NCBI GenBank assembly: GCA_965662235.1
Contig: CBFIGY010000018.1
Location: 1-57,073 of the forward strand
Direction: 5' to 3'
DNA from: an uncultured bacterium
GTDB taxonomy: Bacteria; SAR324; NAC60-12
Length of the DNA stretch: 57,073 nucleotides
Position 1 is the stretch's first letter. Each line of letters begins with the position of its first letter. Of the stretch, positions 354-55,809 are shown one piece after another. Under the pieces are notes generated by a model. That model saw nothing but the letters and a program-made list of their open reading frames with translations. It was not told where the DNA came from and did no database searches. Both the position numbers and the translations under genes were made by a program.

Positions 354-1352
354 ATGAAACCCCTTACCTTTGGCATCATCGGTGCGGGACGCATCGGCAA
401 GCTCCACGCAGACAACCTGCTCAGCCGTGTTGAAGGGGCGCGTCTCAAGGCCATCACCGATCCGTTTCTCGACGAAGCGTGGGCTCAGTCGCGAGGCATT
501 GAAGCCTTTGGCACCGACCATCGGATGCTCCTAGAGGATCCGGAAATCGACGCCATTCTCATCGGTTCACCGTCTCCGGAACATGCGCCCCAGATGATCG
601 AGTGCGCTCACGCCGGCAAGCACATCTTCTGTGAGAAGCCGGTCGCGCTGGATCCGGAGGTGATCCGCCACGCGCTTCAGGAAGTTGAAAAGGCCGGCAT
701 CAAGCTGCAGGTGGGCTTCAACCGACGCTTTGACCCCAGCTTTGCAGCCGTTCAGCAGCAGGTGGCTTCCGGCTCCCTCGGTGACCCGCAGCTGATCCGA
801 GTGACCTCCCGGGACCCTTCGCCGCCGCCGCCTGAGTACGTTGCCAGCTCCGGAGGCATGTTCCTCGACATGACCATCCACGACTTCGACATGATCCGCT
901 TCCTCAGCGGCAGCGAGGTTGAAGAGGTTCACGCCTATGGGGCCGTGTTGGTTGATCCGGAGATTGGCAAAGCCGGCGACATTGACACCGCGGTCATTTC
1001 CCTCAAGCTGGCAAATGGCGCGCTCGGCGTCATTGAAAACAGCCGGAAAGCGGTTTACGGCTACGACCAACGCATTGAGGTCTTCGGCTCGCAGGGGATG
1101 GCCTTTGCCGACAACAACACTCCGACCCGCATGACCGTGATGAGCGAGTCCGGAACCGTCAGCGACAAACCCCTGTACTTCTTCCTCGAGCGCTACCAAG
1201 CCGCCTTTGTTGCAGAAATGCAGGCCTTTGTGCAGGCGATCCAGAAGGATGAGGCCCCACCGGTTTCGGGAAACGACGGGCTGGCGCCGGTGCTCATTGC
1301 GCTTGCAGCCAAGGAATCGCTTCGAGTAGAAGGCCCCGTCAAGGTCGGCTAA
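354..1352 (+). CDS. iolG: myo-inositol 2-dehydrogenase (Gfo/Idh/MocA family)
   Basis: GIIGAGRIG Rossmann motif, CEKP, GFNRRFD, SRDP, DMTIHDFD, YGYDQRIE; start placed at ATG 354. Confidence 0.92.
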   Translation: MKPLTFGIIGAGRIGKLHADNLLSRVEGARLKAITDPFLDEAWAQSRGIEAFGTDHRMLLEDPEIDAILIGSPSPEHAPQMIECAHAGKHIFCEKPVALDPEVIRHALQEVEKAGIKLQVGFNRRFDPSFAAVQQQVASGSLGDPQLIRVTSRDPSPPPPEYVASSGGMFLDMTIHDFDMIRFLSGSEVEEVHAYGAVLVDPEIGKAGDIDTAVISLKLANGALGVIENSRKAVYGYDQRIEVFGSQGMAFADNNTPTRMTVMSESGTVSDKPLYFFLERYQAAFVAEMQAFVQAIQKDEAPPVSGNDGLAPVLIALAAKESLRVEGPVKVG

Positions 1353-1530
1353 CCCTCCCGCGCTGGCTTTGCTGCCTTGGCCAGCGCCCTCATCTTCCAA
1401 CCCCGGTGCTCCCTTCCCGCCTTTTCAATTCCCGGGTTTTCCCCACACGAAGGACTGAGTGTTGCAGGAGATTGTGGATCTGGCCCCACCAGATTCCAGG
1501 CCGTTCCTTTCTCTTCCCACTCTGACTGCC

Positions 1531-2394
1531 ATGAACGCTAACTCCATTGCTCGTCTGCTCATTTCCTGCCCCGACCGTCCGGGCATTGTCTCTGCGGTTT
1601 CCACCTTTCTCTACAATCACGGAGGAAACATTCTGGACCTCGACCAGCACTCCACCGACCCTTCCGGAGGAACGCTGTTCATGCGGGTGGAGTTTGCAAT
1701 TGAGGACCTAGAGGAGTCGCTGCCGGTGATGCGGAAGCACTTCCGCGACTCCGTGGCCCGGACGTACGGAATGGAGTGGGTGCTCAATCCGGCGGCGGAA
1801 CACAAGCGAGTCGCCATTTTGGTGTCAAAGTACGACCACGTGCTGCTGGATCTGCTCTGGCGTCACAGCCGAAAGCTGCTTCCGGCCGAAATTGCCTTGG
1901 TCATCAGCAACCATCCGGACCTGCAGGAAGCAACAGAGCGCTTTGGCGTGCCCTTTCACCAGGTGCCTGTTTCAGCAGACACCAAGGCAGAGGCGGAAGC
2001 CACCATCTTGAACCTGATGGCCGGCCAGGTGGACTTGGTGGTGCTCGCTCGCTACATGCAGATCCTTTCCCGGGACTTCATTGCCGAGTATCCCCACCGG
2101 ATCATCAACATCCACCACTCGTTCCTCCCTGCCTTTGTCGGAGCCAACCCCTACCGACAGGCCTATGAGCGCGGCGTCAAGCTCATTGGGGCCACCGCCC
2201 ATTACGCCACCATGGACCTTGATGAAGGCCCCATCATTGAGCAGGACGTGGTTCGGGTCGCACACGACTTTTCCCCTCGGCAACTGCAGGAGCTGGGGCA
2301 GGACATTGAGCGAGCAGTCTTGGCACGAGCCGTCCTCTGGCACCTTGAGGACCGGGTGCTTGTTCACCAGAACAAGACCATTGTCTTCAGCTAA
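1531..2394 (+). CDS. purU: Formyltetrahydrofolate deformylase
   Basis: N-terminal ACT domain (CPDRPGIV), [36 protein letters not shown]. Confidence 0.95.
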
Positions 2395-2494
2395 ACCACC
2401 GCTTCCCAAGCGTCAGCCCCTGCCGGATTCGTCTCCTTTACCCCTGCCGCCTAATCCGGCTAAAAAATATTTTTCTATAAATTAACAATTTTAG

Positions 2495-2522
2495 TTGCAA
2501 TTTATGGAGAGGTGGTTAGAAT
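2495..2522 (+). promoter_or_regulatory. Candidate sigma70 promoter
   Basis: TTGCAA-16 bp-TAGAAT with AT-rich upstream DNA, before the 2588 ORF. Confidence 0.55.
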
Positions 2523-2587
2523 CAGAATCATTGAAGTTGCTCATCTGAGCCAACCCCCGCACTGCATGACGCTCTAAAGGAGACCCC

Positions 2588-2893
2588 ATGGCAAAAGAAA
2601 CAATGATTGCTCCCGCAAAAAAAGCTTACAACGACTTCTGCGACCAGTACGAAAAAGGTCTGGGCGAGCTGGAGAACCTGCAAAAGCAAGCGCTTGAGCA
2701 GACCTTCGGCATGATGGAGAAGTGGCCGATGATGGACCAGAACCCAATGGCCGCCATGTTCAAGGACGCCAAGCCGGTTCAGCTGAAGGTCCTCACCGAT
2801 GGCTACGCTCAGGTCCGCAAGGTTGCTCAGGACATGCGCCAGCACACCAACCAGTGGATGGCTTCCGCTGAGACCATGGTCCCGGCTCTGTAA
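2588..2893 (+). CDS. Small helical hypothetical protein (phasin-like?)
   Basis: AAGGAG RBS, own promoter and terminator; amphipathic, Met/Gln/Lys-rich 101 aa. Confidence 0.75.
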   Translation: MAKETMIAPAKKAYNDFCDQYEKGLGELENLQKQALEQTFGMMEKWPMMDQNPMAAMFKDAKPVQLKVLTDGYAQVRKVAQDMRQHTNQWMASAETMVPAL

Positions 2894-2922
2894 GCACGAC
2901 TTTCTCCAAAGTCACCTTCCCG

Positions 2923-2962
2923 AATCCCCGGTGCGGTTCTTCCGTATCCGGGGATTTTTTTT
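2923..2962 (+). terminator. Rho-independent terminator
   Basis: aatccccgg-tgcgg...ccgta-t-ccggggatt stem followed by a T run. Confidence 0.85.
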
Positions 2963-16107: not shown

Positions 16108-19100
16108 TTACTTTTTGTGAGCAGCCCCCCGGATTTCTTCGCATCCGGGCCCTTCAAGGCGGCTGCGCCCAAAACGCTGAGGCTGTACCTGAATCTGAGG
16201 GCTCACACGGTCCTTGAGGCTCTGGACGTGTGAGATGATGCCAATGGTTTTTCCCTCATGCTGCAAGCTGGACAGGGTCTCCAGCGCCGTCTCCAGCGCC
16301 TCCTCGTCCAGTGTTCCAAATCCTTCATCCAGAAAAAGCGACTCGAGGCGGATGGTCTGGCTCGCCATCTGGGAAAAGCCAAGGGCCAGCGCAAGGCTGA
16401 CCAGGAAGCTCTCTCCGCCGGAAAGGTTGTAGGGAGAGCGCATTTCCCCGGCCTGATACGTGTCCAGGACCTGCAGTTCCAGCGGCGTGGTCATGTCCGT
16501 CACCAGCAGGTAACGATCGGTCATGCGTTGCAGTTGCTGATTGGCCATGAGCACCAAGCGCTCAAAGGTCAGTCCCTGGGCAAAGTTCCGAAACTTCTTT
16601 CCGTCTGCTGAGCCAATCAGGTCATGAAGCAAGTTCCAACGCCGGCATTCCTGCTTCTGGCGTTCCAGTTCGCCAAGGTGCGTTTCCTGCGTCTTCAACA
16701 ACGCGTCGTGGTCGCTGAGCCTCTTCTGGTGGGCACCGTATTCCTGCTGAAGCCGCGCCTGTGTCTCTAGCAAGGCCTCCTGTGCTTCCTCCAGTTCTGG
16801 CTGCGAGCGTTCAGTCAGCTTCCGGCCTTGCTCCTCAATCAGCTCCTGAGTGTGCTTCTGCGTTTGATCCAGCAGAATCATTTGACGACGAGCCAGGCGA
16901 GTCGAGTGTTCCTGCAAGCGACGACGTTCCTCTTCCGGAAGCACCGCTTGGTGAAACGCGGCCTCCTCTGCAAAGCCTCCGGCCTGGAGTTGCTCCAGAA
17001 AGGCCGCCTCCTGATGCCGCAACTCCGGAGCCCGTTGCTGCAGAGCCTGCTCGCGTTCAGCAATCTGACGCCGGAGCTGCTGTTCCTGACTCCGAGCCAA
17101 TTCCGTTTGCTGACGCTGCACCTCGAATGCCTGTTCCGCACGAGACACAGCTGCCGCGAGTTCCTGTTCCCGGTCATCCGGAGGCGTCGTGCCTAGAAGC
17201 TGGTTCCGCTCCTGCTGAAGCACCTTCTGCTCCTGCTCGAGGGCCTGAAGGCGCTGAAGGACCTGCTGTTCCTCAGTTTCAAGGCGCTGCACCGTCGAGT
17301 GCTCGTTCCTAAGCTGCTCCTGCAGAATCCGGAGCTCATTCGCCAGCTCGTTCAGCCGCGTGTGCCGCAGGTTCCAAGCATCTCGGCGCTGCTCCAGTTG
17401 CTGGCGAAGGACACTCGCTTCTTGCTGAGGAGAGAGGTTCAAGGGACTCAACAGGGCGCCCAACGCCTGATCGGCGTGTTCCAGCTGCTGCTCCAGAGGC
17501 TCCTGCTCCAGTTCACGCTGCTGGGCTTCCGCATCTTCAAGGCGCTGTGCCAGCAACGCCCCGTCACGCTCAACAGCACTCAGCTGCTCCCGGAGGACGC
17601 TCAGGGTTTCGTGACGTTCGACCCCCTGCTGATCCTGCTCTTCCACCAGCGTCACCACTTGGCGAGCGGCTTCTCGTTGCTTCTGCACCGCGACGACTTG
17701 GTCGGCCAGGTGTGCTTCCAGACCTTCGGTTGCCAGCGGGAGCCGGTCCGGAAGCTCCAGTTCCTGCCAGTCCTGTTCTGCCTGGTCTTGCTCCTGCTGA
17801 AGAGCCTCCGCACGCGCCTTCCGCTGCTGCTGATCCTGCACCTGCTGCTGAACCTTCAGCTGCTGCTCCAGGAGTTGCTGCTGCAGCGTCCGGAGCGTTG
17901 CCTTCACTTCGTCCAACCGAATCCGAACTGGCTCCGCCGGAGGCAGCGTTTCCGACGCAAACGGATGCTCCGTCGCGCCACAGAGCGGACAGGCCTCCCC
18001 GGCCTTGAGCTCCGCGCGAGCGTCTTCGAGGCTGAGGATCCGTTGCCGCAGGTGCAGCTGTTCCTCCAGCAGCGCCTGTTCCCGCTGCAGAGCGTCCTGC
18101 TGTTCTGTGAGCCGTTGCGTTTCCTGCTGTCCTCGCTCAATCAACGGTTCCTGTTGCTCCTGCTCCTGAATGAGGGCTCGTTGCGACGCCAGCCCCTGCT
18201 GATGACGGCTCCGGAGCGCCTGGGCCTGCTGCAGTTGCTGGTGCTGGTGCTGCAGTGTCTCGTGCCGGTGACTCCAATCAGCAAGCGTCTGCCCTTGCAA
18301 AGCCGCTTCCCGGGCCGCCTTCTGGGCGTCTTGAGCCTCTACCAGCTCCTGCCGCTGTGATTCCAGAGCGGCCTGCGTTTGCTGAAGCAGAGGACGTTCA
18401 TGAGCCAGCGTCTCCAGTCGGTTCCGGAGCACCTGACGCTGCCGTTGCTGTTCCTGCACCCGCTCAGCCAAATGCGTTCGCCCGTCCAGCCGCTCCAACA
18501 GGCCACTGAGTTGTTCCACAAGCAGAGCATCCCCTTCGTGCTCCTGCTGCTGGCGGCTCAAGGCTTCCTGCTCCTGCTGCAGCGCTCCCTGTTTCTGCTG
18601 GAGGGTCCGGAGGCGAGAGGCCGCATCCTCCTGCTCCTGTTGCTGCGTCTTCCGGGACACCTGCACCTCCGCCACCACCTGACGTTTTTCCTCCAACTGC
18701 ACATCCAGAGTCCGGACCTGCTGCAGCATGGGCTGCTGTGCCTGCTGAATCGTTCGACGCTCCTCGCGAACCTGCTCGGCCTGCTGCAACGCCACCGCTT
18801 GCTGCTCCCGAACCTGCTCGGCGATGGTCAGGTTTTCCCGGAGGCGTGTGAGTTCCTGCTGGTCGGCCTGCTGCTGCTTCCGGAGCGCCTGAACTTCAGA
18901 AAACGCCCCCATGCGCTCCAGAGCCTGAAGGGCACGATCCAGGCGTTGCTGCTCTGGAGCAAACGCCGCAAGTTCTTGATTCAGGGTTTCTTGCTGACGC
19001 TGCCCGCGCTCCAGCTCCTGCTGAAGCTCCTTCAGCTTCTTCAGCCACTCCAGATGCTCCGCTTGCTGCTTCAGCTGGGCCGTCACGGCCTGAGTCTGAT

Positions 19101-19788
19101 CTTGCAGCTGAGTCAGCCCCTTCCGGAGCTCCTGTTCCTCCTCAGCCGTCAGCAACGGCAGCCCCTCCAGCGTCTTCTGCAGGTCCCTCTCCTTCTGCTG
19201 CTCCTCAGCTCGACGAGCGTGTACCCGAATCGAGATCTCCGTGTAAATTCGGGTCCCCGTCAGGTGCTCCAGCAGCGGCGCACGCTCATTCGGAGCGGCA
19301 TGAAGAAAGGTCGCGAACCCACCCTGCGCCAACAGGATGGAGCGGGTGAAGCGGTCAAAGTCGAGGCCGGTGACTTCGATCACCTTATTGCGCACCGATC
19401 TCAGTTGCCCCTCTAGGAGTTTCTGAGACTCGGCATCGCTGATTTCATGCTTGGGAGCCTGGAGCTGATTCCCAGGTTTCTTGTTTGCCCGGTGCTGACT
19501 CCAGTGGCAGCGGTAGCGTCCGGACTGCGTGGAGAACGTCACCTCAGCAAAGCACTCCCCAGTTTGCCGGGACATGATCTCGTTGGTGCTGGCGCTCACC
19601 GATGGCAACCGCGGCGTCCGCCCATACAGCGCAAGGCAGATGGCGTCCAAAAGGGTGGTCTTTCCTGCTCCAGTGGGTCCGGTGATCGCAAAGAGGCGGC
19701 CTTCCACAAAATCCTGGGCCTCAAAGTTGATGCGCCAGGTCCCTTCTAGGGAGTTCAGGTTCCGGAAGCGCAACTCTAGGATCTTCAT
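16108..19788 (-). CDS. sbcC: SbcCD nuclease ATPase subunit (Rad50-like)
   Basis: GPTGAGKTT Walker A, long coiled coil, CPLCG zinc hook, LSGGE signature, LFLDEGFG. Confidence 0.95.
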   Translation of the reverse strand: MKILELRFRNLNSLEGTWRINFEAQDFVEGRLFAITGPTGAGKTTLLDAICLALYGRTPRLPSVSASTNEIMSRQTGECFAEVTFSTQSGRYRCHWSQHRANKKPGNQLQAPKHEISDAESQKLLEGQLRSVRNKVIEVTGLDFDRFTRSILLAQGGFATFLHAAPNERAPLLEHLTGTRIYTEISIRVHARRAEEQQKERDLQKTLEGLPLLTAEEEQELRKGLTQLQDQTQAVTAQLKQQAEHLEWLKKLKELQQELERGQRQQETLNQELAAFAPEQQRLDRALQALERMGAFSEVQALRKQQQADQQELTRLRENLTIAEQVREQQAVALQQAEQVREERRTIQQAQQPMLQQVRTLDVQLEEKRQVVAEVQVSRKTQQQEQEDAASRLRTLQQKQGALQQEQEALSRQQQEHEGDALLVEQLSGLLERLDGRTHLAERVQEQQRQRQVLRNRLETLAHERPLLQQTQAALESQRQELVEAQDAQKAAREAALQGQTLADWSHRHETLQHQHQQLQQAQALRSRHQQGLASQRALIQEQEQQEPLIERGQQETQRLTEQQDALQREQALLEEQLHLRQRILSLEDARAELKAGEACPLCGATEHPFASETLPPAEPVRIRLDEVKATLRTLQQQLLEQQLKVQQQVQDQQQRKARAEALQQEQDQAEQDWQELELPDRLPLATEGLEAHLADQVVAVQKQREAARQVVTLVEEQDQQGVERHETLSVLREQLSAVERDGALLAQRLEDAEAQQRELEQEPLEQQLEHADQALGALLSPLNLSPQQEASVLRQQLEQRRDAWNLRHTRLNELANELRILQEQLRNEHSTVQRLETEEQQVLQRLQALEQEQKVLQQERNQLLGTTPPDDREQELAAAVSRAEQAFEVQRQQTELARSQEQQLRRQIAEREQALQQRAPELRHQEAAFLEQLQAGGFAEEAAFHQAVLPEEERRRLQEHSTRLARRQMILLDQTQKHTQELIEEQGRKLTERSQPELEEAQEALLETQARLQQEYGAHQKRLSDHDALLKTQETHLGELERQKQECRRWNLLHDLIGSADGKKFRNFAQGLTFERLVLMANQQLQRMTDRYLLVTDMTTPLELQVLDTYQAGEMRSPYNLSGGESFLVSLALALGFSQMASQTIRLESLFLDEGFGTLDEEALETALETLSSLQHEGKTIGIISHVQSLKDRVSPQIQVQPQRFGRSRLEGPGCEEIRGAAHKK

Positions 19789-21014
19789 GCAGAGGCCTCC
19801 TCTAGGTGGTCTTCAGTTTCGAGTGCATGCAGCACTTCCTGATACGCCTGCAGCAGCTCCGGTTGCTGGGCTTTTGGAACCTGGTAATGCTCCAGGCAGC
19901 GCTGAAACACCTCTTTCGGACTCAGTTCTTCCAGGGTTTCTGCCGGATGCTGCAGACGCGGGACAGTGGGGGCCCAGCGGGCGTTCTTCACCCGGAGCAG
20001 CTCCAGCGGGGTTCCGGAAATGATTTCTTCCAACTGCTGCTGAAGGTTCTCCACCAGCTCGGCTCCCGTGTACGTCACTTCCAGCCAGACGGAGGTGTCT
20101 GCCGCGCACAGCTCCTGCAAACGCTCCTGGAGGGTCGCCCAGTCCCCCTGAAGGGAAACCAGCTTCTGGAAGGTCGGAATCGGCAACAGCCGGGCTGTGG
20201 TTCCTGCAGCAGTCAGGTCCACCAGCACCACGCTCTTTTGCTGTGCTGCCTCGCCAAATCCCATTGGCAGAGGCGAGCCACTGTAGCGGATCAGCGGGCC
20301 TCCCTTGACCTGCTGCGGCACATGCAGGTGCCCCAGCGCCACATAGTTCAGCGCCGACGGAAACAGCGCCGACGAGATCTGCCCCAAGGCGCCCACGTAA
20401 AGATTCCGGACGCCCTCGCCCTCTTGCACAGCCCCTCCGGTGGTAAACAAGTGCCCCATGGCCACCACCGGCAGGTCCGGATGCGCCGCACGTTCCTGTT
20501 CCGCTTTTGCAAAGACCCGGGCATAATGGTCATGAATTCCGGCGACGAGGCGCTGGTCCTTGTCCTCCGGTGTCTCTCCTGACTCCACGGTCCGGAGTTC
20601 CCGGTCATGGAGAAAGGGCACCGCGCAGACAATCAATTCCGGCATCCCCTGGTGACGCAGAACCAGCACCTCGTCCTCTGGAGACGAAGCCTTGCCGATC
20701 ACGTGCACGTTCAAGGCGCGCAGAAGGGTTTGAGGCGCATTGAGAAAGGTGGGCGAGTCGTGGTTTCCGGCAATCACCACCACGTGTCGGCACGAAGAGC
20801 CCGCCACTTGAGCCAGAAACTGGTAGTACTGCTGCTGAGCCGTGGTGCCCGGTGTTGAGGTGTCAAAGACGTCTCCGGCAATCAACAGCGCCTCCACCTG
20901 CTCGTCCCTAAGGGTCGTCACCAGCCAAGAGAGAAACGCCTCGAACTCCGCGTGACGCTTGCGTCCGTACAAGGAGCGTCCTAGGTGCCAGTCGGAAGTA
21001 TGAAGCAGCTTCAT
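19785..21014 (-). CDS. sbcD: SbcCD nuclease subunit D (Mre11-like)
   Basis: LHTSDWHLG, AGDVFD, AGNHD, LGHLH, YSGSP; start at ATG 21014. Confidence 0.95.
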   Translation of the reverse strand: MKLLHTSDWHLGRSLYGRKRHAEFEAFLSWLVTTLRDEQVEALLIAGDVFDTSTPGTTAQQQYYQFLAQVAGSSCRHVVVIAGNHDSPTFLNAPQTLLRALNVHVIGKASSPEDEVLVLRHQGMPELIVCAVPFLHDRELRTVESGETPEDKDQRLVAGIHDHYARVFAKAEQERAAHPDLPVVAMGHLFTTGGAVQEGEGVRNLYVGALGQISSALFPSALNYVALGHLHVPQQVKGGPLIRYSGSPLPMGFGEAAQQKSVVLVDLTAAGTTARLLPIPTFQKLVSLQGDWATLQERLQELCAADTSVWLEVTYTGAELVENLQQQLEEIISGTPLELLRVKNARWAPTVPRLQHPAETLEELSPKEVFQRCLEHYQVPKAQQPELLQAYQEVLHALETEDHLEEASA

Positions 21015-21132
21015 GGGCAATCGGGAAGATGAGGGGTTGAAAGAAGGGTTACCTTTTCGCAAATGCCCCAGCCTGTCAAGGCTTTTCCCTGAGCATGCAT
21101 GGAGCAGGATCGCGTTTTTTGCAGGAGTGCTG

Positions 21133-21963
21133 ATGGAACCCAACCCCTCTCGTTTTTCCTTGGAAGAGTCGCCTTCCACGGCCACCGAGACCGTTGCCGT
21201 GATGGACGAAACCGGCGCTTGGCGCGACGTTTCGGTAACAGGCGAACGCCCCCTAACGCTGCTGGTCAACAACCGAGAGCTTGTCACCTTGATGACCCTA
21301 GGGCGGCATCCGGAGCTTCTGGCCATTGGTTGGTTGCGGAATCAGGGATTCTTGGAGCAGGCTTCCGAGCTGCTGTCTGTTCAGGTCATCTGGGATGCAC
21401 AAACCGCGGTTCTCTTCATTCAGAACGACCTGACGGGCTGGGAGAAGAAGCTGGCCAAGCGTACGGTCACCACCGGCTGCGGGCAGGGCACGGTGTTTGG
21501 TGAGCTGGTCGGCGACTTAGAACGCTATCAGCTTCCACGCCCCACGGTTCGGCAATCCACGCTCTATGCGCTGTTGCGGAACCTCAAGCACTGCAATGAG
21601 GTGTACCGCGAATCCGGAGCCGTGCACGGCTGTGCCCTCTGCGAGGAGGACCAGGTTCGCTTCTTTGTGGAGGACGTGGGCCGTCACAACGCGGCCGACG
21701 CCATTGCTGGGCACATGCTGCTCGAGGGCATTCCTGGAGGAGACAAGGTGTTTTACACAACCGGACGCCTGACGTCAGAGATGGTCATCAAGACTGCGCA
21801 GATGGGCATTCCGGTGCTGGTCTCGCGGGCCGGTGTCACCCAGATGGGCCTAGACCTCGCTCGGCGGCTCGGGGTGACGCTCCTTTCCCGCGCCGGGGGC
21901 AAACACTTCCTTGTTTACAACGGCGCCGAAACCCTGGTGCTGGATGCTCCTCCGGACGCTTGA
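21133..21963 (+). CDS. fdhD: Formate dehydrogenase accessory sulfurtransferase
   Basis: ERPLTL, TTGCGQG, GAVHGCAL, EDVGRHNA, TTGRLTSEMV; GGAG RBS. Confidence 0.92.
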   Translation: MEPNPSRFSLEESPSTATETVAVMDETGAWRDVSVTGERPLTLLVNNRELVTLMTLGRHPELLAIGWLRNQGFLEQASELLSVQVIWDAQTAVLFIQNDLTGWEKKLAKRTVTTGCGQGTVFGELVGDLERYQLPRPTVRQSTLYALLRNLKHCNEVYRESGAVHGCALCEEDQVRFFVEDVGRHNAADAIAGHMLLEGIPGGDKVFYTTGRLTSEMVIKTAQMGIPVLVSRAGVTQMGLDLARRLGVTLLSRAGGKHFLVYNGAETLVLDAPPDA

Positions 21964-39746: not shown

Positions 39747-41681
39747 TTAGGACACCTTTCGCGCCTCCTGAGGAAGAGCACGCAGGCGTTGGGGTTGACG
39801 GGCTTCCAGACGTGCCTGAATCTGAGCTTCAATCGCCTCCACAGACAGGCCTGCCTCCTCGCGTTGCTCCTCCGGAGAGCCCTGGGCGATGAAGCGGTCG
39901 GGAATGCCCAGCACCAGGGTTTCCACAGAAGACCGGGCCGATGAGAGGGCCTCCAGCACAGCGCTCCCGAATCCGCCGTGGGCCGTGTTTTCCTCCAGCG
40001 TCACCACCAGCTCAGCGGATTCAGCAAAGCGCAGCAGTGTGGCTTCGTCCAGAGGCTTCACAAAACGACCGTTGATCACAGCGCACGACCAACCCTGCTC
40101 ACTCAGGCGATCCGCAACCGCTTGGGCGGCATCAACCATGACTCCGACGGCAAAGATCGCCACCTCGGTGCCTTCCTGAAGCACATGCGCCCGGCCCAGT
40201 TCAATTTCGGGAACCGACGACTCTTCCAGCTCAGCCGACTCTCCACGTGGGTAGCGCATGGCAATGGGTCCAGACTCAAACTGGTGGGCAAAGCGGAGCA
40301 TCCGTTTCATTTCCGCACCGTTGCGAGGCACCATCACCGTCAGTCCCGGGATCATCCGCAGGTAAGTGAGGTCATAGGCCCCATGGTGCGTGGGCCCGTC
40401 GGCGCCGACAAAGCCGGCACGATCGAGCATCAGGCGGACCGGGAGCTTCTGGATTGCGACGTCGTGAATGAGCTGATCAATGGACCGCTGGAGGAAGGAA
40501 GAGTAGATGGCCACAAAGGGTTTGGTGCCATTGGTCGCCATTCCCGCAGCACAGGTCACCGCGTGCCCTTCGGCAATCCCAACGTCAATGATGCGTTCCG
40601 GGTAGCGTTCTTGCAGGGCTAAGAGTCCGGTCCCGCTGAGCATGGCGGCGCTGATCCCGACCACATCCGGATCCTGCGTCATCAGTTCACTCAGCGTGGA
40701 GCCAAACAGGTCGGAGTAGCTGACGGCCTTGGTGGGCGCCGCAGTGCTCTTTTTGATGAATTCGCCACTCTCCGGGACAAAGGGTTTCACCCCGTGGTAC
40801 TTGTAGGCGTCTTCTTCCGCGTACTTGTAGCCCTTGCCCTTTTTGGTGATCGCATGGACCACCACCGGCCCCTCGAAGTCCTTCACATGCGTCAGCATGT
40901 CGAGGAGTTCCTTCAGGTTGTGTCCATCGACCGGGCCAAAGTAACGCCACCCCAGCTGCTCAAAGAGCATCCCTGGAGTGAAGAAGGTCTTCATGGAGTC
41001 CAGCACCTTCTCCATGCCAATGTGGAGGGTTTTGGAAAACGGAGACTTGCCGATGAGGTCCCAGGTCTCTTCGCGGATGCGGTTGTAGTAACGTGAGGCA
41101 GCAATGCGGGTGACGAATTTGGAGAGGGCGCCCACATTCGGGTCAATGCTCATGCCGTTGTCACTGTAGATCAGCAGCATTTTCTTTTCGGCAAACCCGT
41201 TGTGGTTGAGCGCCTCAAACGCCATGCCTCCGGTCATGGAGCCATCGCCAATGACGGCAATGACCTGGTGGTCCTCTTCCCGGAGGTCCCGGCTGATGGC
41301 CATGCCCACTCCGGCAGAGATCGACGTGGAGGCATGCCCAGCCCCGAAGTGGTCATACGGGCTCTCGTCCCGGGACAGAAACTTCTTGATGCCCCCCCGT
41401 TGGGCTAGGGTTTCAAAGGCATCGCTTCGGCCACTGAGGATCTTGTGGGCGTAGGCCTGGTGCCCGACGTCCCAGATGATGCGGTCCTTCTGGAAGTCGA
41501 ACAGGTGGAAGAGGGCCACAGAGAGTTCCACCGCGCCGAGAGAAGACGCCAAGTGCCCGCCGCGCTTGCTGGTGACCTCAATAATCCGTTGCCGGCACTC
41601 TTCAGCGAGTTGCTCGAGTTGCGTTAAACTCAGCTGTTGAATCTCGCGGGGTTGTGAGATATTTTTTAGCAACGAGTTCAT
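39747..41681 (-). CDS. dxs: 1-deoxy-D-xylulose-5-phosphate synthase
   Basis: GGHLASSLG, WDVGHQAY, GDGSMTGG, GIAEGH, DRAG.VGADGPTH, RYPRG. Confidence 0.96.
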   Translation of the reverse strand: MNSLLKNISQPREIQQLSLTQLEQLAEECRQRIIEVTSKRGGHLASSLGAVELSVALFHLFDFQKDRIIWDVGHQAYAHKILSGRSDAFETLAQRGGIKKFLSRDESPYDHFGAGHASTSISAGVGMAISRDLREEDHQVIAVIGDGSMTGGMAFEALNHNGFAEKKMLLIYSDNGMSIDPNVGALSKFVTRIAASRYYNRIREETWDLIGKSPFSKTLHIGMEKVLDSMKTFFTPGMLFEQLGWRYFGPVDGHNLKELLDMLTHVKDFEGPVVVHAITKKGKGYKYAEEDAYKYHGVKPFVPESGEFIKKSTAAPTKAVSYSDLFGSTLSELMTQDPDVVGISAAMLSGTGLLALQERYPERIIDVGIAEGHAVTCAAGMATNGTKPFVAIYSSFLQRSIDQLIHDVAIQKLPVRLMLDRAGFVGADGPTHHGAYDLTYLRMIPGLTVMVPRNGAEMKRMLRFAHQFESGPIAMRYPRGESAELEESSVPEIELGRAHVLQEGTEVAIFAVGVMVDAAQAVADRLSEQGWSCAVINGRFVKPLDEATLLRFAESAELVVTLEENTAHGGFGSAVLEALSSARSSVETLVLGIPDRFIAQGSPEEQREEAGLSVEAIEAQIQARLEARQPQRLRALPQEARKVS

Positions 41682-41774
41682 GTCTTTGTTGAAAAACGAG
41701 TTAGCTGGGTCCCCCAGTTCCACTAGGGACGTGTGCTTGATTTTTTCTTGAATCGCGGTCTTTCAGGAGTTCCC

Positions 41775-44180
41775 TTGAACGATTCTCTTCTTCAAAGTGT
41801 CCAACAGAAACGCTCGGCGCTTCAGCAACAGAGACGACCGGTTTCTCAGCTCCAGGCCGCTCAGGTTGAAACCGAAGCCATCCAGCAGTTTGTCAAAACG
41901 GCACTTCATCCCGACCATCGCTGGTTCATTCCGTCGAGTGAGCAAAGCACCATCGTCAAGACGCTGAACGAGATCCGTCAGCTCTTCAAAACGTATTATG
42001 AGGACTGCCGAACTCCGGAGCACTTCCAGCGGGCGCCTCAGCGCTTCCTTGAACTGGGCAACCGGATCAGCCACCTCAGCTACTGCATCCACCTGAGCCT
42101 CGACCAGGGCTTCTTTGGCATTGAGCCCAAAGGCCTGACTCCACGGGAGTCCGTTTCCCGGGCTCTGGAACGACTGGATCGGCTGCACGACAGCCTCCAG
42201 GGCCAGACGTGGAAGGACCTGCCCATTCCTCATCAGGTAGAGGAGGAGTTCGTCTCACAGTTTGAGCAGATCTACTCCGAGCAGAAGCCCAAGGCGCAGG
42301 ACCTGTTGAACCGCCCCGACTTTGGCGGTGCAGAGAAGCCCCTTACGGTTGAACAGCTTGAAGCCGCTTACGCGCTGTTTCAAGGGCTCCGCCCCCTGCA
42401 GGAAATGGAAGAACAGCTGCTCGAATCTGTTTTGAAGGGAGAGCACCCTCATCCGCCATCTCCGGCCCCCAGCATCGAATCCATTCTGCGGCGGCTCAAG
42501 AACCTCCAGCAAAGCCTGACGCTGCAGCATCCGCCCAAGCCCCTGCACGATCCCAAGGGGCGTTTCCCGCTCACGGTGAACGACCTGCGCCTGCAGCTCG
42601 GACTGCTTCAGGTCCCACTGGCTCCGTTGCAGTACCTGAGCGACCTGAGTCTGCAGCTTGGAGGCAGCCGTAACCCCAGCGGGTTCGCGGAGAGGCATCT
42701 TCAAAAGGCTACACAGGAGCAACAAGACCTGCAAATGTTTAATGGGAAGCTGGACCAGGTCCTAGACTCCCTCCGGCAGGTCAATTCCATCTTAGGGAAC
42801 CTGGCCGTTTCATTTGGGAAGCTCTACTACAACGCCTCTCCCAAACGCCTGCAGGCCGCCTTCCTGAAAAAGGTCCTCACCACCATCCGGGGCCTCCTGC
42901 GCAAGGCGTTGCAGATCTTTGACTCCCACCACCGCATGCTCCTTGAATCCAAAGAGCTGCTGGAAAAAATGGACCTCGTCGTCGCGTTCGTCAAAGGGCT
43001 CACTGAGACCATCAGCGAAATTGAACAGGCCCGCAACGAGATCTCGCAGTATGAGATGCAGCTCGGGGGCTTGCTAGAAGATGTTGACTCCACTCCCAAA
43101 GCCACCTCTGCGCAGCTCTATCAGTGGCTCCAGCAGGCCTATGAGGCCCGGACTTCTGTCGCATCCGCCTGCATGGTGTTGGGTAATGTGGAGATGATGG
43201 GAGAACTGCTTTCTCTCTCCATTGACCGCTTCCAGGACTTCTACGCTCACTTTGACACCATCAAGGCGGAGCACACGGACCCTGCTGAGCGAGCCCAGGC
43301 CCTGAAGGACTTCTTGGCCACTCCGCCCAGCTATCAGGAGGAGCTTCTCAAAGCGGTCGACTTCAACGCAGAAGCCTTGGAGTGGGTGGTCAATGAAGTG
43401 CTGGAGAGTTCCTTTGAGGAGGAGCGCCTCTTTGTCGAGACCGCCGAGGAGCAGGTGCTCCCCGTGAAGCTGCGGGTGAAGTCGCTGCAGGCGACCGAAG
43501 CCCCTCGAGTGGGAGGAACACGCGATGCCAACTCACCAGAAGAAAAGCGTCCGGCGCATCAGATCCAACGGATGTCCACCGGCAGCAGCTCCGGCGATGC
43601 CGACCCCCTCAAGGCCCTCAAGAGCATGCAGCAGGGACGTCCCTCTGCCCGTTACGATCCGTTCCCGCCCAACGTCATGGACACCATGCGTCGGGTCACT
43701 CGCCGCATGCGGACGCCCAAGGGAGACATGCTGTACTACATCCTGACGCACACGCATGTGATGTTCGACAGCCTCGACAAGTCCGAAGCCAGCTACAACA
43801 TGCCCAACACCACTGTCACCAACCTGGAGCGCGCCCTGCACGCCAGCAAGACGGCAAACGACTTCATTGTCAACTTTGCCAAGCTCAAGCTGCTCACGCA
43901 CGGCTACTACAACTCGCACTCCAAGGAGTTTGTCTTTGACGAGGCAAAGAAGCGGTTCGACATCCCGGCGCAGGTGGACAAGTTCCTCATGCTCAACAAG
44001 GGCGCCTTTGAGACCCCCAAGGGTCTGTTTGACCGGCTGGTCCGGATCATGTTGAAGATGGACGATGCCAAACTGGTGGAGAAGGTCATGACTGAGCAAG
44101 CCTTTGCCATCCTGAAATCAGACTTCATCCTCTCTGATGAGGAGGCCCAGCAGATTCAGGACGAGCTCGCCATGCTCTAG
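41775..44180 (+). CDS. Large helical hypothetical protein (start uncertain)
   Basis: ~800 codon ORF with coding-like codon bias; AGGAG before TTG 41775; no motif recognised. Confidence 0.8.
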   Translation: MNDSLLQSVQQKRSALQQQRRPVSQLQAAQVETEAIQQFVKTALHPDHRWFIPSSEQSTIVKTLNEIRQLFKTYYEDCRTPEHFQRAPQRFLELGNRISHLSYCIHLSLDQGFFGIEPKGLTPRESVSRALERLDRLHDSLQGQTWKDLPIPHQVEEEFVSQFEQIYSEQKPKAQDLLNRPDFGGAEKPLTVEQLEAAYALFQGLRPLQEMEEQLLESVLKGEHPHPPSPAPSIESILRRLKNLQQSLTLQHPPKPLHDPKGRFPLTVNDLRLQLGLLQVPLAPLQYLSDLSLQLGGSRNPSGFAERHLQKATQEQQDLQMFNGKLDQVLDSLRQVNSILGNLAVSFGKLYYNASPKRLQAAFLKKVLTTIRGLLRKALQIFDSHHRMLLESKELLEKMDLVVAFVKGLTETISEIEQARNEISQYEMQLGGLLEDVDSTPKATSAQLYQWLQQAYEARTSVASACMVLGNVEMMGELLSLSIDRFQDFYAHFDTIKAEHTDPAERAQALKDFLATPPSYQEELLKAVDFNAEALEWVVNEVLESSFEEERLFVETAEEQVLPVKLRVKSLQATEAPRVGGTRDANSPEEKRPAHQIQRMSTGSSSGDADPLKALKSMQQGRPSARYDPFPPNVMDTMRRVTRRMRTPKGDMLYYILTHTHVMFDSLDKSEASYNMPNTTVTNLERALHASKTANDFIVNFAKLKLLTHGYYNSHSKEFVFDEAKKRFDIPAQVDKFLMLNKGAFETPKGLFDRLVRIMLKMDDAKLVEKVMTEQAFAILKSDFILSDEEAQQIQDELAML

Positions 44181-51278: not shown

Positions 51279-51310
51279 GTGAGCGCACTCGCGTTTTTTT
51301 CATTATCTAC

Positions 51311-51339: not shown

Positions 51340-51352
51340 AGTGGATTGCAGT

Positions 51353-52031: not shown

Positions 52032-53921
52032 ATGGCACGCCTCATAACTTTGCTGGGATCACTCGTACTGGCCCTGCCTGCTTATGCGGGCGGTGGCGGT
52101 GGCGGAACGGACCTGATCGAGCCCTTGGGAGCCATGCTCCTGGCGGCGGCAATCATTGCGGTCATTCTGAGCTACGCCAAGCAGGCCAGCCTCTTCGCCT
52201 TCATCATTGTGGGCATCATCGGCGGAGCGATCGGCTTCAAGGAGGTCATCAACACGAACGTGATGACCGCCTTCGTGGACGTGGGCATCACGCTCCTGCT
52301 CTTCATGGCAGGGATGGAAGTGGACATCCCGGGACTGATCAAGCGCTGGAAGCTGCTCCTGATCAACGGAATGGGGCAGATCGTTGGCCTGCTGATCGTC
52401 TGTGTCGGGTTCGGTGTGGTGTACATGGGCATTGGTGAGGAGTACATGCGCAACGCTGGGCTGCCAGAAGGCAATGCCACTGCCGCGCTGCTGTACTTTG
52501 GCATCTGCCTCACGCTCTCCTCCACCATCTTGGTGGTGGGGAACCTCAAGCAAACCGGACAGATTGCTCAGGAGCACGGACAGATTGCTCTGGGCCTGAT
52601 GGTGCTGCAGGACATCACTGCGGTGGTGGCGCTGGCCATTCTTGGAGTTCTGAAGCCGATTGCCCCGGGAGAAGAGCCTCCGGTGCTGGGGGTTGAGATC
52701 GGCCTGATCTTCGGCAAGATGATCATCCTTGCTGTCATTCTGTACTTTGTCACCAAGCACGTCCTCAGTCCGCTCTTCAAGTTCTTTGCTCGCTCCCCTC
52801 AGCTCCTCTTCATTGGGACCCTGGGATACGGCATGGGCGTCGCGGGACTCTGTGAGGTGGTGCACTTCTCCTCTGGAATCGGAGCCTTCTTCGCAGGAGC
52901 GACCCTGGCTGCGTTGCCATACCGGCACGAAATTGAAGACAAGGTGGAGCCCCTCAAGGCCTTTGGGGTGATGCTGTTCTTCTTCGGTCTCGGCTTTGAC
53001 ATCTCCGGCCTTGAGGTGGAGCAGGTCATGGGAGGTCTGGTGGATGGCATCTTCCTGGCGATTGTTCCGGTTGTCATTGGAACCATCCCGCTGATGCTCA
53101 CCCTGGGGTACCTCAGTAAGCTGGAGTCGAAACCCTCGCTCTTGATGGGGGTCATCATCAACCAGTCTTCCGAGTTTTCGCTCATGCTGTCGGTCTTGTG
53201 CCTGCAGTACAAGATCTTTGACCCGCACCTCTTCATTGTCATCACCATCGTTGTGCTGGTGACCTTCTTCCTTTCATCGCTGGGGCACCAGTTCATGGAT
53301 CAGATCTACAACGCCCTCTCCGGACCGTTGAAGTTCATGGACGGACGCCGCACCCGCGAAGAGACCGACCACGAAGGCGAGCACGACCTGGTGCTGGAAA
53401 ACCATGTGGTGATCATGGAGTACAACGACCTTGCCGTTGAGATTGCCGACTTCTATGCGAAGCGGGGACAGCAGGTTCTGCTTTTGGACCTTGATCCGGA
53501 CATCACCGAGTACTTTGAGAATCAGCACGGACACAGTAACATTCACGCCCACTACTCGGACATGCAGGATCCGGATGTGTGGGAAAGCATGGCCTTCGAC
53601 AAGGCCAAGGTCGTTATCTCCTGCATGGACGGAGGCCAGGAAGCCGAGATGGGCATTGCCCGCTGGCTGAAGGAGCGCTCCCCTGAGGTGCCGTTTATTG
53701 CCGCCACCTCCTCGCACCAAGAGACCCTGGACCTCTACGGCTCAGGCGCACGCTTTGTGATTCAGACTGAATACCTTGCGGCGAAGTCCTTCCGGCAGGT
53801 CTTTGAACAAGAGGCCCACAAGCCTGTGAAAGACGCTTTTGTGGAACCCGGAAAAGCGGATCTGCAAGAAGTGGAAAGCCTGCTGAAGAGTGCGGAGCAC
53901 GCTGAAGTTGCTCACGCCTGA
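52032..53921 (+). CDS. CPA2 cation:proton antiporter with C-terminal RCK/TrkA-N-like domain (paralogue 1)
   Basis: LLLFMAGME, LSSTI, MVLQD, GAFFAG, QSSEFS; soluble C-terminal domain. Confidence 0.9.
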   Translation: MARLITLLGSLVLALPAYAGGGGGGTDLIEPLGAMLLAAAIIAVILSYAKQASLFAFIIVGIIGGAIGFKEVINTNVMTAFVDVGITLLLFMAGMEVDIPGLIKRWKLLLINGMGQIVGLLIVCVGFGVVYMGIGEEYMRNAGLPEGNATAALLYFGICLTLSSTILVVGNLKQTGQIAQEHGQIALGLMVLQDITAVVALAILGVLKPIAPGEEPPVLGVEIGLIFGKMIILAVILYFVTKHVLSPLFKFFARSPQLLFIGTLGYGMGVAGLCEVVHFSSGIGAFFAGATLAALPYRHEIEDKVEPLKAFGVMLFFFGLGFDISGLEVEQVMGGLVDGIFLAIVPVVIGTIPLMLTLGYLSKLESKPSLLMGVIINQSSEFSLMLSVLCLQYKIFDPHLFIVITIVVLVTFFLSSLGHQFMDQIYNALSGPLKFMDGRRTREETDHEGEHDLVLENHVVIMEYNDLAVEIADFYAKRGQQVLLLDLDPDITEYFENQHGHSNIHAHYSDMQDPDVWESMAFDKAKVVISCMDGGQEAEMGIARWLKERSPEVPFIAATSSHQETLDLYGSGARFVIQTEYLAAKSFRQVFEQEAHKPVKDAFVEPGKADLQEVESLLKSAEHAEVAHA

Positions 53922-53946
53922 ACCGTCTGATTGAAAGGAAACTGAA

Positions 53947-55809
53947 ATGCTGAACTCTCGATTTTTTCGATTTTCTGTGGCCTTAGGAGTGCTGCTGCTG
54001 CTTGCTCTCCCGGCTTACGCAGGGGGAGGTGGCTGGCTGATCAAGCCCCTGGGCCTGATGCTCGGTGGCGCCATGCTGCTCACCATTGTCCTCACGCTGC
54101 TTAAGCAGACGAGCACCCTCTCCTTCATCGTCATGGGCTTCCTCATGGGAGGAGTGGCTGGTGGAATGGCTTCGACTCCGGAAGAGCTCGAGGCCCTTTT
54201 CCCCGGAATTGAGTCCATTCTGCTGGGATTCCAGCAGATTGGGGTGATCCTGATCTTCTTCATGGCGGGTCTGCAGTTTGACATCAATGACATCACCAAG
54301 CGCGGACGCCTGATCACAGTCAACGGATTGGGGTACCTCGCACTGGGGCTGCTGTTCTTCTACTTTGTCGGCTCCAAGATTGTGGGCACCACCAGCTTTG
54401 CTGACTCCATCTACTTTGCTCTCTGCATGGTGATTCCTTCTGCAGCCCTGGTGGGACTGGCGCTGGAGCAGTATGAGAGTGAAGAGAGCCTGCATGGACA
54501 GATTGCCAAGGGAAGCATGGTCATCTCCAGCCTCGTGGCTGTGGTCCTGCTGGCCAAGCTCGATGCCACCGTTGGCAGCGATGCCACTCAGGATTCCGGG
54601 GTCTTCAACCTCTGGATGACCGAGGGCGTCATTTTGATGCTCCTCTTCCTCCTTGTGCTGGCAAAGCTGTTCCTGGAGCCCATCCTCCGCTACCTGCTGC
54701 GTTCCTCTGAGATGCTGTTCATCAGCGCCCTGGGATACTGCATGGGGGTGGCCAGTATCTGTGACTACTTGGGCATTGCTCCGGAAGCCGGAGCCTTCTT
54801 CGCAGGGGTTTCCATCGGCATCCTGCCCTACCGCATTGACGTCGAAGACAAGGTCGGCCCCCTGCAGTCGTTTGGGCAGATCCTGTTCTTCATCACCCTG
54901 GGCGTGATGATGGCCCGCATCGACGGTGCCGTCTACGCATCGAGCTTCGGAGGCATCATCATGCTGACGATCCTCGTGCTGGTGGTGAAGCCTATCATTT
55001 CCATCATCATGGGATACGCCACGGGTCTGAAAGCACGTCCGACCTTCATGGTGGGGCTAACCCTCAACCAAGGATCTGAGATCACCATCATCCTGGCGCT
55101 GCTGGCTTGGATGGATGGGCTCTTCTCCGACCAGGTCTTTGCCACAGCCGTCTGTGTGACGCTGCTTTCATTTGTGCTTTCTTCCTTTGGGCACAGCGGC
55201 ATCCACTCCCTCTATAAGTCCTTCAAGGGGCTTCTGAGCTTCTTGGACCGGAACACACCTCCTCAGCAGCTGACGGCAACCCACAACTTTGAACTGAAGG
55301 ACCACGTCATCCTCCTTTCCTTCAATGAACTGTCTCAGGAAATTGCGGCGTTCTACGAGGAGAAGGGTGAGCGGGTGCTACTCGTGGACATTGATCCGGA
55401 GATCTACTCCTTCTTCAATGCCAAGATCGACGGCAACATTGTTCCGCTTTATGCCGACAGCACCGACAACGGCGTTTGGGGCGCGTATCGCTTTGACCAG
55501 GCCAAGCTTGTGGTGGCCTGTAATGCCGACGACCAAGAGGCCAATGTGGCGCTCGCAGGCTTCCTGAAGAGCTCCGGGGTCCCCTTTCTGTCAGTCGCAG
55601 GCTCCAACGAAGATGCGCAGGCCCTCTATGAAGGCGGTGCCCGTTTCGTGATCAATCCGGAACACTCGGCTTCCAAGGCCTTCCGGACGATCTTCGAGGA
55701 AGAGATCAGCAAGCCCACCGCTGAATCCTTCCAGGTCCGGGGTGCTTCTCACTGGAAGGACACCCGTCAGATTCGGGACGAGCTCGGAGAGATCTTCAAA
55801 CTCGTCTAA
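53947..55809 (+). CDS. CPA2 antiporter-like protein with RCK domain (paralogue 2)
   Basis: Co-linear with paralogue 1 (LPAYAGGG, FMAG, GAFFAG, EDKV, NQ.SE, GARFVI) but MVISS replaces MVLQD. Confidence 0.88.
   Translation: MLNSRFFRFSVALGVLLLLALPAYAGGGGWLIKPLGLMLGGAMLLTIVLTLLKQTSTLSFIVMGFLMGGVAGGMASTPEELEALFPGIESILLGFQQIGVILIFFMAGLQFDINDITKRGRLITVNGLGYLALGLLFFYFVGSKIVGTTSFADSIYFALCMVIPSAALVGLALEQYESEESLHGQIAKGSMVISSLVAVVLLAKLDATVGSDATQDSGVFNLWMTEGVILMLLFLLVLAKLFLEPILRYLLRSSEMLFISALGYCMGVASICDYLGIAPEAGAFFAGVSIGILPYRIDVEDKVGPLQSFGQILFFITLGVMMARIDGAVYASSFGGIIMLTILVLVVKPIISIIMGYATGLKARPTFMVGLTLNQGSEITIILALLAWMDGLFSDQVFATAVCVTLLSFVLSSFGHSGIHSLYKSFKGLLSFLDRNTPPQQLTATHNFELKDHVILLSFNELSQEIAAFYEEKGERVLLVDIDPEIYSFFNAKIDGNIVPLYADSTDNGVWGAYRFDQAKLVVACNADDQEANVALAGFLKSSGVPFLSVAGSNEDAQALYEGGARFVINPEHSASKAFRTIFEEEISKPTAESFQVRGASHWKDTRQIRDELGEIFKLV

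Follow-up and report, generated by a model that had tools for sequence, protein, structure and literature searches.

Does TCCGGA, a palindrome that recurs throughout the DNA shown above, behave as a highly iterated palindrome (HIP) like those of cyanobacteria? The stretch analyzed, hereafter the window, is the whole of contig C18 (57,073 nucleotides) of the genome of an uncultured bacterium, coded G000; labels beginning with G, g and f are our own codes for genomes, genera and families, the source family being f1. HIP-like behavior had been proposed by a sequence-only reading, whose counts are confirmed: all eight copies that it listed near the start (at 539, 575, 653, 849, 956, 1149, 1663 and 1914) are present, and its hand count of about 18 copies in 16.9-20.6 kb is exact, with 18 between 16934 and 20596. 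Its overall range, 539 to 55686, contains 136 copies but misses two more, at 56237 and 56340. In total there are 138 copies (2.42 per kb), versus 19.48 ± 4.06 in 100 dinucleotide-preserving shuffles of the window, the largest of which held 30 and none of which reached 138. Base composition predicts 0.32 copies per kb at 59.9% GC, in line with the earlier estimate of about 0.3; the excess is indeed large, but the roughly 10-fold figure given for it is somewhat high, the actual values being about 7.5-fold in the window and 6.9-fold genome-wide. Genes on both strands carry sites, as had been noted (121 of the 138 are inside 41 called genes), and there are sites between genes. The answer to the question is affirmative: TCCGGA is a genuine HIP-like palindrome outside the cyanobacteria, in a clade of one uncultured bacterial family.

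The excess is a feature of the entire genome. The assembly (3,467,002 bases in 75 contigs, 96.9% complete, 59.9% GC) contains 7,726 TCCGGA sites, which corresponds to 2.23 per kb, 2,228 per Mb, or about one per 450 bases. It is the most frequent of all hexamers, with a both-strand count of 15,452 versus 9,578 for the runner-up. The observed/expected ratio (O/E) is 6.89 against base composition (zero order), and 6.24, 3.06, 2.01 and 1.14 against Markov models of orders 1 to 4.

This excess resides in the DNA as such and cannot be put down to codon usage or to the proteins encoded. For the coding part, we used 2,713 genes (3.0 Mb) called with our own simple iterative codon-score caller, which provides a rough annotation, and two null models: a synonymous shuffle keeping each protein and each gene's codon usage (20 shuffles), and a stricter dicodon shuffle that leaves dinucleotides unchanged as well, even where they span two codons. 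Against 6,893 sites observed in genes, the synonymous shuffle expects 1,996 (O/E 3.45, z = 82), which ranks TCCGGA first of 4,096 hexamers and makes it the sole strong outlier among high-count palindromes. The dicodon shuffle expects 2,774 ± 38 sites (O/E 2.48, z of about 108), and unrelated words drop to 0.96-1.43 under it. Neither correction brings the ratio to about 1, and all three reading frames are enriched: TCC GGA (1,522 sites versus 545 in the synonymous shuffle, O/E 2.8; dicodon O/E 2.71), xxT CCG GAx (1,980 versus 670, O/E 2.95; dicodon 2.13) and xTC CGG Axx (3,391 versus 781, O/E 4.3; dicodon 2.64). Non-coding DNA is equally affected. In 963 strict intergenic spacers of 40-350 bp (121.7 kb, 54% GC), there are 206 sites versus 45.1 ± 7.2 in first-order simulations, TCCGGA being the top hexamer there too, and codon-context words such as CATTGA show no excess.

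The half-sites show a strand asymmetry of their own. On the coding strand, TCCGGG (2.27), TCCGGT (1.73) and TCCGGC (1.27) are higher over the synonymous shuffle than their reverse complements CCCGGA (1.19), ACCGGA (1.22) and GCCGGA (0.88), that is, TCCGGN is enriched whatever the last base (1.27-2.27) and VCCGGA is not (0.88-1.22). Codon-pair context or a transcription-linked mutation asymmetry could produce this pattern.

Sites are scattered along the chromosome in a random manner. The coefficient of variation (CV) of inter-site spacing is 0.99, the variance/mean ratio in 5-kb windows is 1.05, and just 3 of 653 such windows hold two sites or fewer. Since spacing is Poisson genome-wide, the run of eight copies at the start of the window is a chance-level fluctuation rather than an array; the sparsest stretch of the window is likewise within the Poisson range, the largest gap genome-wide being 4.2 kb. 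One of the low-site windows corresponds to a block on contig C32, where a methylase remnant lies beside a YhcG gene; we read this block as foreign because of its gene content and low site count. Information in the flanks of TCCGGA does not exceed 0.05 bit per position, and CTTCCGGAAG-like extensions are weakly preferred; the extended form TTCCGGAA is 17-fold enriched in G000 and 17- to 29-fold across G000, its congener G002, and G013, a member of another genus. A longer repeat or mobile element was rejected in view of these flanks, the spacing and the lack of arrays. A promoter or terminator element was rejected as well, the metagene profile being flat with only a slight dip at start codons.

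TCCGGA sites are also unusually durable. In 374 kb of G002 aligned to G000 (82% identity), 57.9% of 815 sites of G000 are intact; the corresponding figure is 33.7% for hexamers overall, 28% for the word AGGCCT and 35% for GGATCC. We also scored TCCGGA, 23 control palindromes of the same composition and 18 one-off variants of the motif with the Jaccard conservation score applied to HIP1, the cyanobacterial palindrome GCGATCGC, by Xu et al. (PMC5861425). TCCGGA scores 0.342 in coding and 0.319 in non-coding DNA, versus 0.205 and 0.201 for the control palindromes, a result tempered by two ATG-containing controls that are as conserved as TCCGGA. Where the amino acid is conserved, all six codon classes are kept more often inside the motif than outside: GGA (0.70 versus 0.39), TCC (0.80 versus 0.61), CGG (0.83 versus 0.54), NTC (0.88 versus 0.68), CCG (0.77 versus 0.59) and NNT (0.74 versus 0.41). 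CGG with one cognate flank shows intermediate retention (0.72 and 0.66). In spacers, 40 of 71 aligned sites (56%) are fully conserved, versus 33% of spacer hexamers overall. When a third congener is added (G001, about 75% identical; 47.8 kb aligned), 27 of 208 TCCGGA positions (13%) are common to all three species, versus 24 of 754 control positions (3.2%). Many sites are private to one species, so turnover also occurs. Gains and losses polarized with G001 show no net direction: at 75% identity, the outgroup leads parsimony to overcount "gains", for control words too. Single-base differences between species lean to the outer T and A of the motif (87 of 187 and 129 of 325, versus one third expected).

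Among the relatives, drawn from a class of 88 species genomes, the trait is graded across the source family and strongest in one clade (Table 1). TCCGGA tops the hexamer counts of G000, G002, G013 and G005, no other word distinguishes the enriched genomes from the non-enriched G014 as well, and the pattern of NCCGGN words is alike in G000, G002 and G013. The idea that the palindrome is lineage-specific is thus supported, with the excess confined to part of one family. GC content is not the cause: G012, at 41.9% GC, has an O/E of 7.3, and G010, at 46.7%, has 1.07. Since the same word is enriched in genomes of 42% to 61% GC, a generic mutational spectrum is unlikely to single it out. The tree of a methylase-like gene described below unites the strongly enriched genera g1, g12, g4 and g11 in a clade (support 88/86) whose sister is the non-enriched g2. 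A trait that arose once and was then inherited vertically over a long time would give this picture, one gene tree being only a proxy for the species tree.

Table 1. Abundance of TCCGGA in the source genome and its relatives, relative to base composition
Genome	Family	Genus	GC	Zero-order O/E	Class
G002	f1	g1	61.0%	8.65	enriched
G013	f1	g12	56.7%	7.64	enriched
G012	f1	g11	41.9%	7.29	enriched
G000	f1	g1	59.9%	6.89	enriched
G005	f1	g4		4.09	enriched
G004	f1	g3		3.62	enriched
G011	f1	g10		2.08	weak
G007	f1	g6		2.02	weak
G017	f1	g7		1.21	none
G014	f1	g2		1.14	none
G009	f1	g8		1.11	none
G010	f1	g9		1.07	none
G006	f1	g5		0.28	none
G078	f7			3.44	
G066	f4			2.09	

Other CCGG words behave differently outside f1, where a control based on the reversed word AAGGCCTT was discarded as misleading: it is unreliable because the ratio of G066 stems from AGGCCT depletion and the apparent "depletion" in f7 from a general CCGG avoidance. 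In G078 (f7), all NCCGGN words are at about 2.2-fold. In one branch of f7, an 8.9-kb contig of G083 contains no CCGG at all, with about 17 copies expected, and TTCCGGAA is nearly absent genome-wide in genera g38 and g40-g43 (3-30 copies), with 228-333 copies of the reversed word. This branch looks like a case of strong CCGG avoidance and has, perhaps, a different favored palindrome. In G066 (f4, 35.4% GC), GCCGGC, with 63 copies in 200 kb, exceeds the base-composition expectation 10.2-fold, RCCGGY words are 3- to 5-fold enriched and AGGCCT is almost absent (0.05); the excess of GCCGGC and RCCGGY is similar to an alternate HIP, rCCGGy, described by Elhai in Oscillatoria PCC 10802. No alternate HIP was seen in the non-enriched relatives, in which the top palindromes reach 1.9- to 3.5-fold.

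How closely does TCCGGA match the known HIPs? Like HIP1 and the alternate HIPs of cyanobacteria, it is a short palindrome rich in GC. No hexamer is commoner in G000, G002 and G013, and the density of TCCGGA falls within the 500-2,500 copies per Mb stated by Elhai (PMC4390886). Also as in HIPs, it exceeds codon expectation in every frame and is abundant in non-coding DNA too, its sites outlast control palindromes of the same GC content, with codons conserved more inside than outside, and its distribution is clade-specific with exceptions. Its single-base deviations lean outward, as Elhai reports for HIP1 (PMC4390886). The proposal that TCCGGA behaves as a highly iterated palindrome is therefore upheld by its rank among hexamers, its presence in all frames and in spacers, and its conservation beyond that of control palindromes. 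There are also differences. TCCGGA is a hexamer in another phylum and no cognate methylase was found for it, whereas HIP1 and the alternate HIPs go with methylases. Moreover, unlike for HIP1, one-off variants are not conserved above controls, no consistent periodicity was seen in the fragmented assembly and the half-sites are almost independent. We found no report of TCCGGA as an over-represented genomic word in the literature. It does not appear in the text of Elhai (PMC4390886), the supplementary HIP tables lying outside this comparison, and a literature search on the source lineage returned nothing.

What maintains such a word? That one and the same hexamer is 7- to 9-fold enriched at 42% to 61% GC and survives a null keeping all dinucleotides suggests that something reads the word itself. 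The explanation that we place first, although we rate its chances somewhat below even, is that a vertically inherited protein reading the hexamer gives its sites a weak genome-wide fixation advantage. Changes creating or keeping a site would be favored either by natural selection or by biased gene conversion or repair, two forms of fixation bias that these data do not separate, since conservation alone does not distinguish them. Sites would then arise at random places until their density reached about one per 350-450 bp, be replaced only slowly and last longer than comparable words. As for the process served, uptake and/or homologous recombination of conspecific DNA is our best guess, by analogy with HIP1 and DNA uptake sequences; it is unlikely taken by itself and carries somewhat less than half the weight of the explanation to which it belongs. 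We favor it over methylation-directed repair, for which the tests below were negative. The complete scenario, an independent non-cyanobacterial HIP read by a putative protein without cognate methyltransferase and serving as a self-mark in DNA uptake or recombination, seems unlikely to us.

DNA uptake sequences (DUS) in Neisseria and uptake signal sequences (USS) in Pasteurellaceae occur at about 1-2 per kb in core genes, in all frames and in a lineage-specific manner, and can accumulate by drive without a benefit per site; those known are 9-12 nt long and not palindromic. TCCGGA resembles them in its density of 2.23 per kb, the uniformity of this density and the presence of ComEC and DprA. It differs in that a 6-nt word would discriminate self from foreign DNA merely about 7-fold, and in that competence genes do not track the trait, ComEC being present in 31 of 31 genomes of the order and DprA in 30 of 31. 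These genes thus neither support nor count against the uptake-like signal suggested in the sequence-only reading. In the non-enriched G014, the ComEC and DprA matches each have an internal stop (TAG and TAA, respectively), the frames being open in its congener G003; these could be pseudogenes or assembly errors. HIP1 itself has been reported to raise transformation efficiency (bioRxiv 10.1101/2024.09.10.611283; PMC13756078).

Several observations weigh against a reader of the hexamer. The excess of 6.9-fold (8.6 in G002 and 7.6 in G013) is less than an order of magnitude and far under the 15- to 300-fold of HIP1, or the roughly 15-fold or more of GGCGCC (with HIP as used by Elhai 2015, PMC4390886, and Xu et al. 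2018, PMC5861425). The order-4 Markov O/E is merely 1.14, each sub-word being modestly enriched (1.15-1.33 by maximal-order Markov), and TCCGGA ranks 414 of 4,061 hexamers by maximal-order Markov O/E. With the enrichment spread over all sub-words, the two half-sites contribute almost independently. Its conservation is not unique in kind, since retention rises with over-representation across 822 hexamers (Spearman 0.47) and TCCGGA lies on this trend (rank 73, residual -0.5 SD, in standard deviations). The one-off variants score 0.193 in coding and 0.212 in non-coding DNA, unlike those of HIP1, close to the control palindromes. Spacing is purely Poisson, without evenness or saturation, and a 5-100 kb periodicity reached p = 0.02 (at 11 kb) in one of the six largest contigs, with 0.18-0.97 in the others, in a fragmented assembly. 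ComEC and DprA are equally present in relatives without TCCGGA excess. The gene calls rest on our own crude caller, the 14 relatives were sampled at 57-400 kb each rather than as whole genomes, and no reader protein was identified.

Many of these points favor the main rival explanation, a neutral by-product of context-dependent mutation. A lineage-specific mutation or repair spectrum favoring TC, TCC, CCG, CCGG and CCGGA would generate the palindrome by overlap on both strands, with no reader involved. The weak high-order Markov excess, the Poisson dispersion, the position of TCCGGA on the retention trend, the ordinary conservation of one-off words and the graded strength of the trait among genera are all as such a spectrum would have it. 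So is the nearly multiplicative behavior of the half-sites, seen again in the stepwise retention of CGG with no, one or both cognate flanks. However, one and the same word is 7- to 9-fold enriched at 42%, 57%, 60% and 61% GC, it stays at 2.48-fold with all dinucleotides kept when other words collapse to about 1, and its three-species conservation is 4 times that of controls. In addition, maximal-order Markov tests are insensitive here because 48.5% of TCCGG pentamers (15,452 of 31,832) sit inside the hexamer. We regard the neutral explanation as unlikely, albeit the strongest of the competitors.

Next comes a methyltransferase-linked ratchet, which is Elhai's model for HIPs. An orphan methylase would mark TCCGGA or CCGG, and methyl-directed mismatch correction would make and protect sites. 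A search of the 96.9%-complete G000 for C5 methylases (PF00145) found only a 112-aa N-terminal remnant adjoining a YhcG/DUF1016 gene, PF02384 had no match, and PF01555 and PF02086 both match one 730-aa gene only. A methylase motif screen of all 2,713 predicted proteins yielded 21 candidates including this gene; the other 20 were set aside, two being rRNA methylases (RlmL/K-like and RsmD-like), 16 having unrelated domains and two having no Pfam match. The 730-aa protein begins with about 340 residues of Arg/Asp/Glu-rich, EDRPRR-like repeats (weak match to Pfam LED_rpt), followed by a domain with the two hallmark motifs of beta-class N4/N6 DNA methylases; their order is permuted, motif I preceding SPPY (FMGGGT ... 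TSPPYPG). It matches Pfam N6_N4_Mtase with 34.8 bits and, weakly, PDB 2zie and N4-cytosine methylases, and is plausibly an orphan DNA methylase.

The 730-aa gene is nevertheless a poor driver, and it was rejected as such because neither its presence nor its motif IV follows the trait. Homologues are found in 26 of 31 genomes, including the non-enriched G003, G014, G006 and G010 and most of the sister family. None was found, among the 31, in G011 (O/E 2.08) or in G018, the enrichment of which is known solely from a TTCCGGAA ratio of 909 to 34. The SPPY motif is canonical in the non-enriched g2, g9, g5 and f2, whereas the corresponding position is degenerate in the enriched g4 (RPPL/RPPF) and g3 (APPA) and in the weakly enriched g6 (NPPM/HPPL). 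Neither Vsr (PF03852) nor MutH was found in searches of G000. The neighbors of TCCGGA produced by deamination are not depleted (TCTGGA 1.43 and TCCAGA 1.37 over the synonymous shuffle, with TTCGGA at 0.77 and TCCGAA at 0.88), and the site is unusually stable rather than hypermutable, which makes 5-methylcytosine at TCCGGA unlikely. N4-methylcytosine (m4C) and N6-methyladenine (m6A) leave no mutational footprint, and either would escape an analysis of sequence alone. The ratchet thus has in its favor a conserved orphan gene with beta-class motifs, two modifications that would leave no trace and an outward lean of single-base differences that Elhai also reported for HIP1 (PMC4390886). The lack of any other DNA methylase in the Pfam searches or motif screen and a spacing that is not even count against it, and we judge it improbable. 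The link to a methyltransferase or repair mark raised in the sequence-only reading accordingly lacks support: the searches turned up neither a cognate methylase nor one of CCGG type, and no Vsr or MutH, and the 730-aa gene does not co-vary with the trait.

Two other enzymatic systems provide useful comparisons. Dcm/Vsr very-short-patch repair in E. coli reportedly raises CCWGG and lowers CTWGG, a finding that goes back to Bhagwat and McClelland in 1992. TCCGGA is similar insofar as a repair or methylation process would be reshaping the genome-wide counts of one short palindrome, but no Vsr was found, the C-to-T neighbors are not depleted, and the Dcm-type site of G000 shows the opposite, CCWGG decaying to CTWGG. 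This decay is a separate trait of G000 that its congener G002 does not show: CTAG is at 1.02 versus 0.15 per kb, CCWGG at 3.4 versus 5.0 per kb and CTWGG at 3.9 versus 1.9 per kb in G000 and G002, respectively. Of 908 CCTGG in G002, 81 align to CTTGG and 52 to CCTAG in G000, and the reverse direction is rare. Just three CAG-to-TAG stops in 92,000 aligned codons indicate real substitutions filtered by selection, not sequencing errors. The 5-fold excess of CCTAGA and ACCTAG over the synonymous shuffle in G000, and their zero retention, are explained by this decay. Restriction enzymes such as Kpn2I and BspEI do recognize TCCGGA, and restriction systems normally deplete their own site; here, in contrast to such restriction-modification, the site is enriched and a methylase partner was not found. 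In G013, other palindromes are depleted beside the 7.6-fold excess of TCCGGA (CCWGG 0.16, CCCGGG 0.17, GCCGGC 0.19, ACCGGT 0.28, AGGCCT 0.28), which suggests several restriction systems acting beside the enriched word.

TCCGGA might instead be the binding site of an abundant chromosome-organizing protein, selected for nucleoid structure, which is how Xu, Lawrence and Durand interpret HIP1, the conservation of which they read as selection (PMC5861425). TCCGGA passes the three tests of these authors, against control palindromes, for codons inside and outside the motif, and in non-coding DNA. Yet there is no consistent 5-100 kb periodicity, in an assembly whose 75 contigs limit power, the dispersion in 5-kb windows is Poisson-like, sites show no preferred position relative to genes save for the dip at start codons, and there is no candidate protein. 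We consider nucleoid organization quite improbable. A Chi-like role as a recombination hotspot or protective signal, working in both orientations because the word is a palindrome, is very improbable in our view. Chi sites are short (5-8 nt), lineage-specific, over-represented and dense in core genes, features that TCCGGA would share, but no palindromic Chi is known. TCCGGA, unlike Chi, has no orientation, and in 40 windows of 50 kb its asymmetric extended forms such as TCCGGAAG are not clearly correlated with GC skew (|r| of at most 0.30). Repair would, furthermore, need far fewer sites than one per 450 bp. A Chi-like action has been proposed for HIP1 (bioRxiv 10.1101/2024.09.10.611283). Finally, an artefact of codon usage and dipeptides (Ser-Gly, x-Pro-Glu/Asp or xTC-CGG-A) has a negligible probability: TCC, GGA, CCG and CGG are all common codons in G000 (shares of 0.30, 0.30, 0.41 and 0.37), but the synonymous, codon-permutation and dicodon shuffles, together with the spacers, rule it out.

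The function of HIP1 has been debated for three decades on evidence that comes almost entirely from one phylum and one motif. TCCGGA offers a second case, in an unrelated lineage and with a different word, that passes the same conservation tests without an obvious methylase. Sister genera differ about 30-fold in the strength of the trait, whatever their GC content. They form a comparative experiment made by nature, in which the mechanism should be traceable through any gene that parallels the excess in presence or sequence. If TCCGGA is an independent HIP, phylogenetic profiling of the graded relatives (O/E 0.28 to 8.65) could identify the gene responsible, and the 30-year-old question of what HIPs do could be approached from a second side. 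In practical terms, a word this dominant skews the k-mer-based binning signatures of these genomes as well as restriction-based methods applied to them. Its density may also mark native versus recently acquired DNA, for which the low-site block on contig C32 is the single example seen.

The features located in this work are listed in Table 2. The 41 genes called in the window, which occupy both strands, are of the ordinary housekeeping kind; among them are sbcCD, genes for cytochrome c biogenesis, dxs, thrC, transporters and two-component systems. The SbcC gene carries 14 TCCGGA sites (3.8 per kb).

Table 2. Positions of the features discussed (window coordinates unless a genome or locus is named)
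Feature	Position	Strand	Context	Basis
Dispersed TCCGGA, 138 copies	539..56345		genes of both strands and intergenic	count and shuffle
Run of 8 copies in 1.4 kb	539..1919		in Gfo/Idh/MocA oxidoreductase gene (177-1352, +) and formyltransferase/ACT gene (1459-2394, +)	
18 copies in 3.7 kb	16934..20596		in sbcC-like (16108-19788, -) and sbcD-like (19785-21326, -) genes	
Sparsest stretch, single copy (42014) in 3.4 kb	40672..44040		spans dxs end and 815-aa gene without Pfam match	
815-aa protein	41733-44180	+		
C5-methylase remnant, 112 aa	L001 1378-1716 = G000:C32	-		PF00145 match
Methylase-like gene, 730 aa, orphan	G000:C16, L002 409-2601	+		Pfam, motifs
ComEC match with internal stop	G014:C146:5513-6151			
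DprA match with internal stop	G014:C55:6619-7224			
8.9 kb with zero CCGG	G083:C1:1-8935			

The 815-aa protein in the sparsest stretch has no Pfam match at an E of 1e-5 or better, and its gene holds two TCCGGA sites (0.8 per kb). The protein shares 84% identity with one from a metagenome-assembled genome (MAG) record labeled Deltaproteobacteria.

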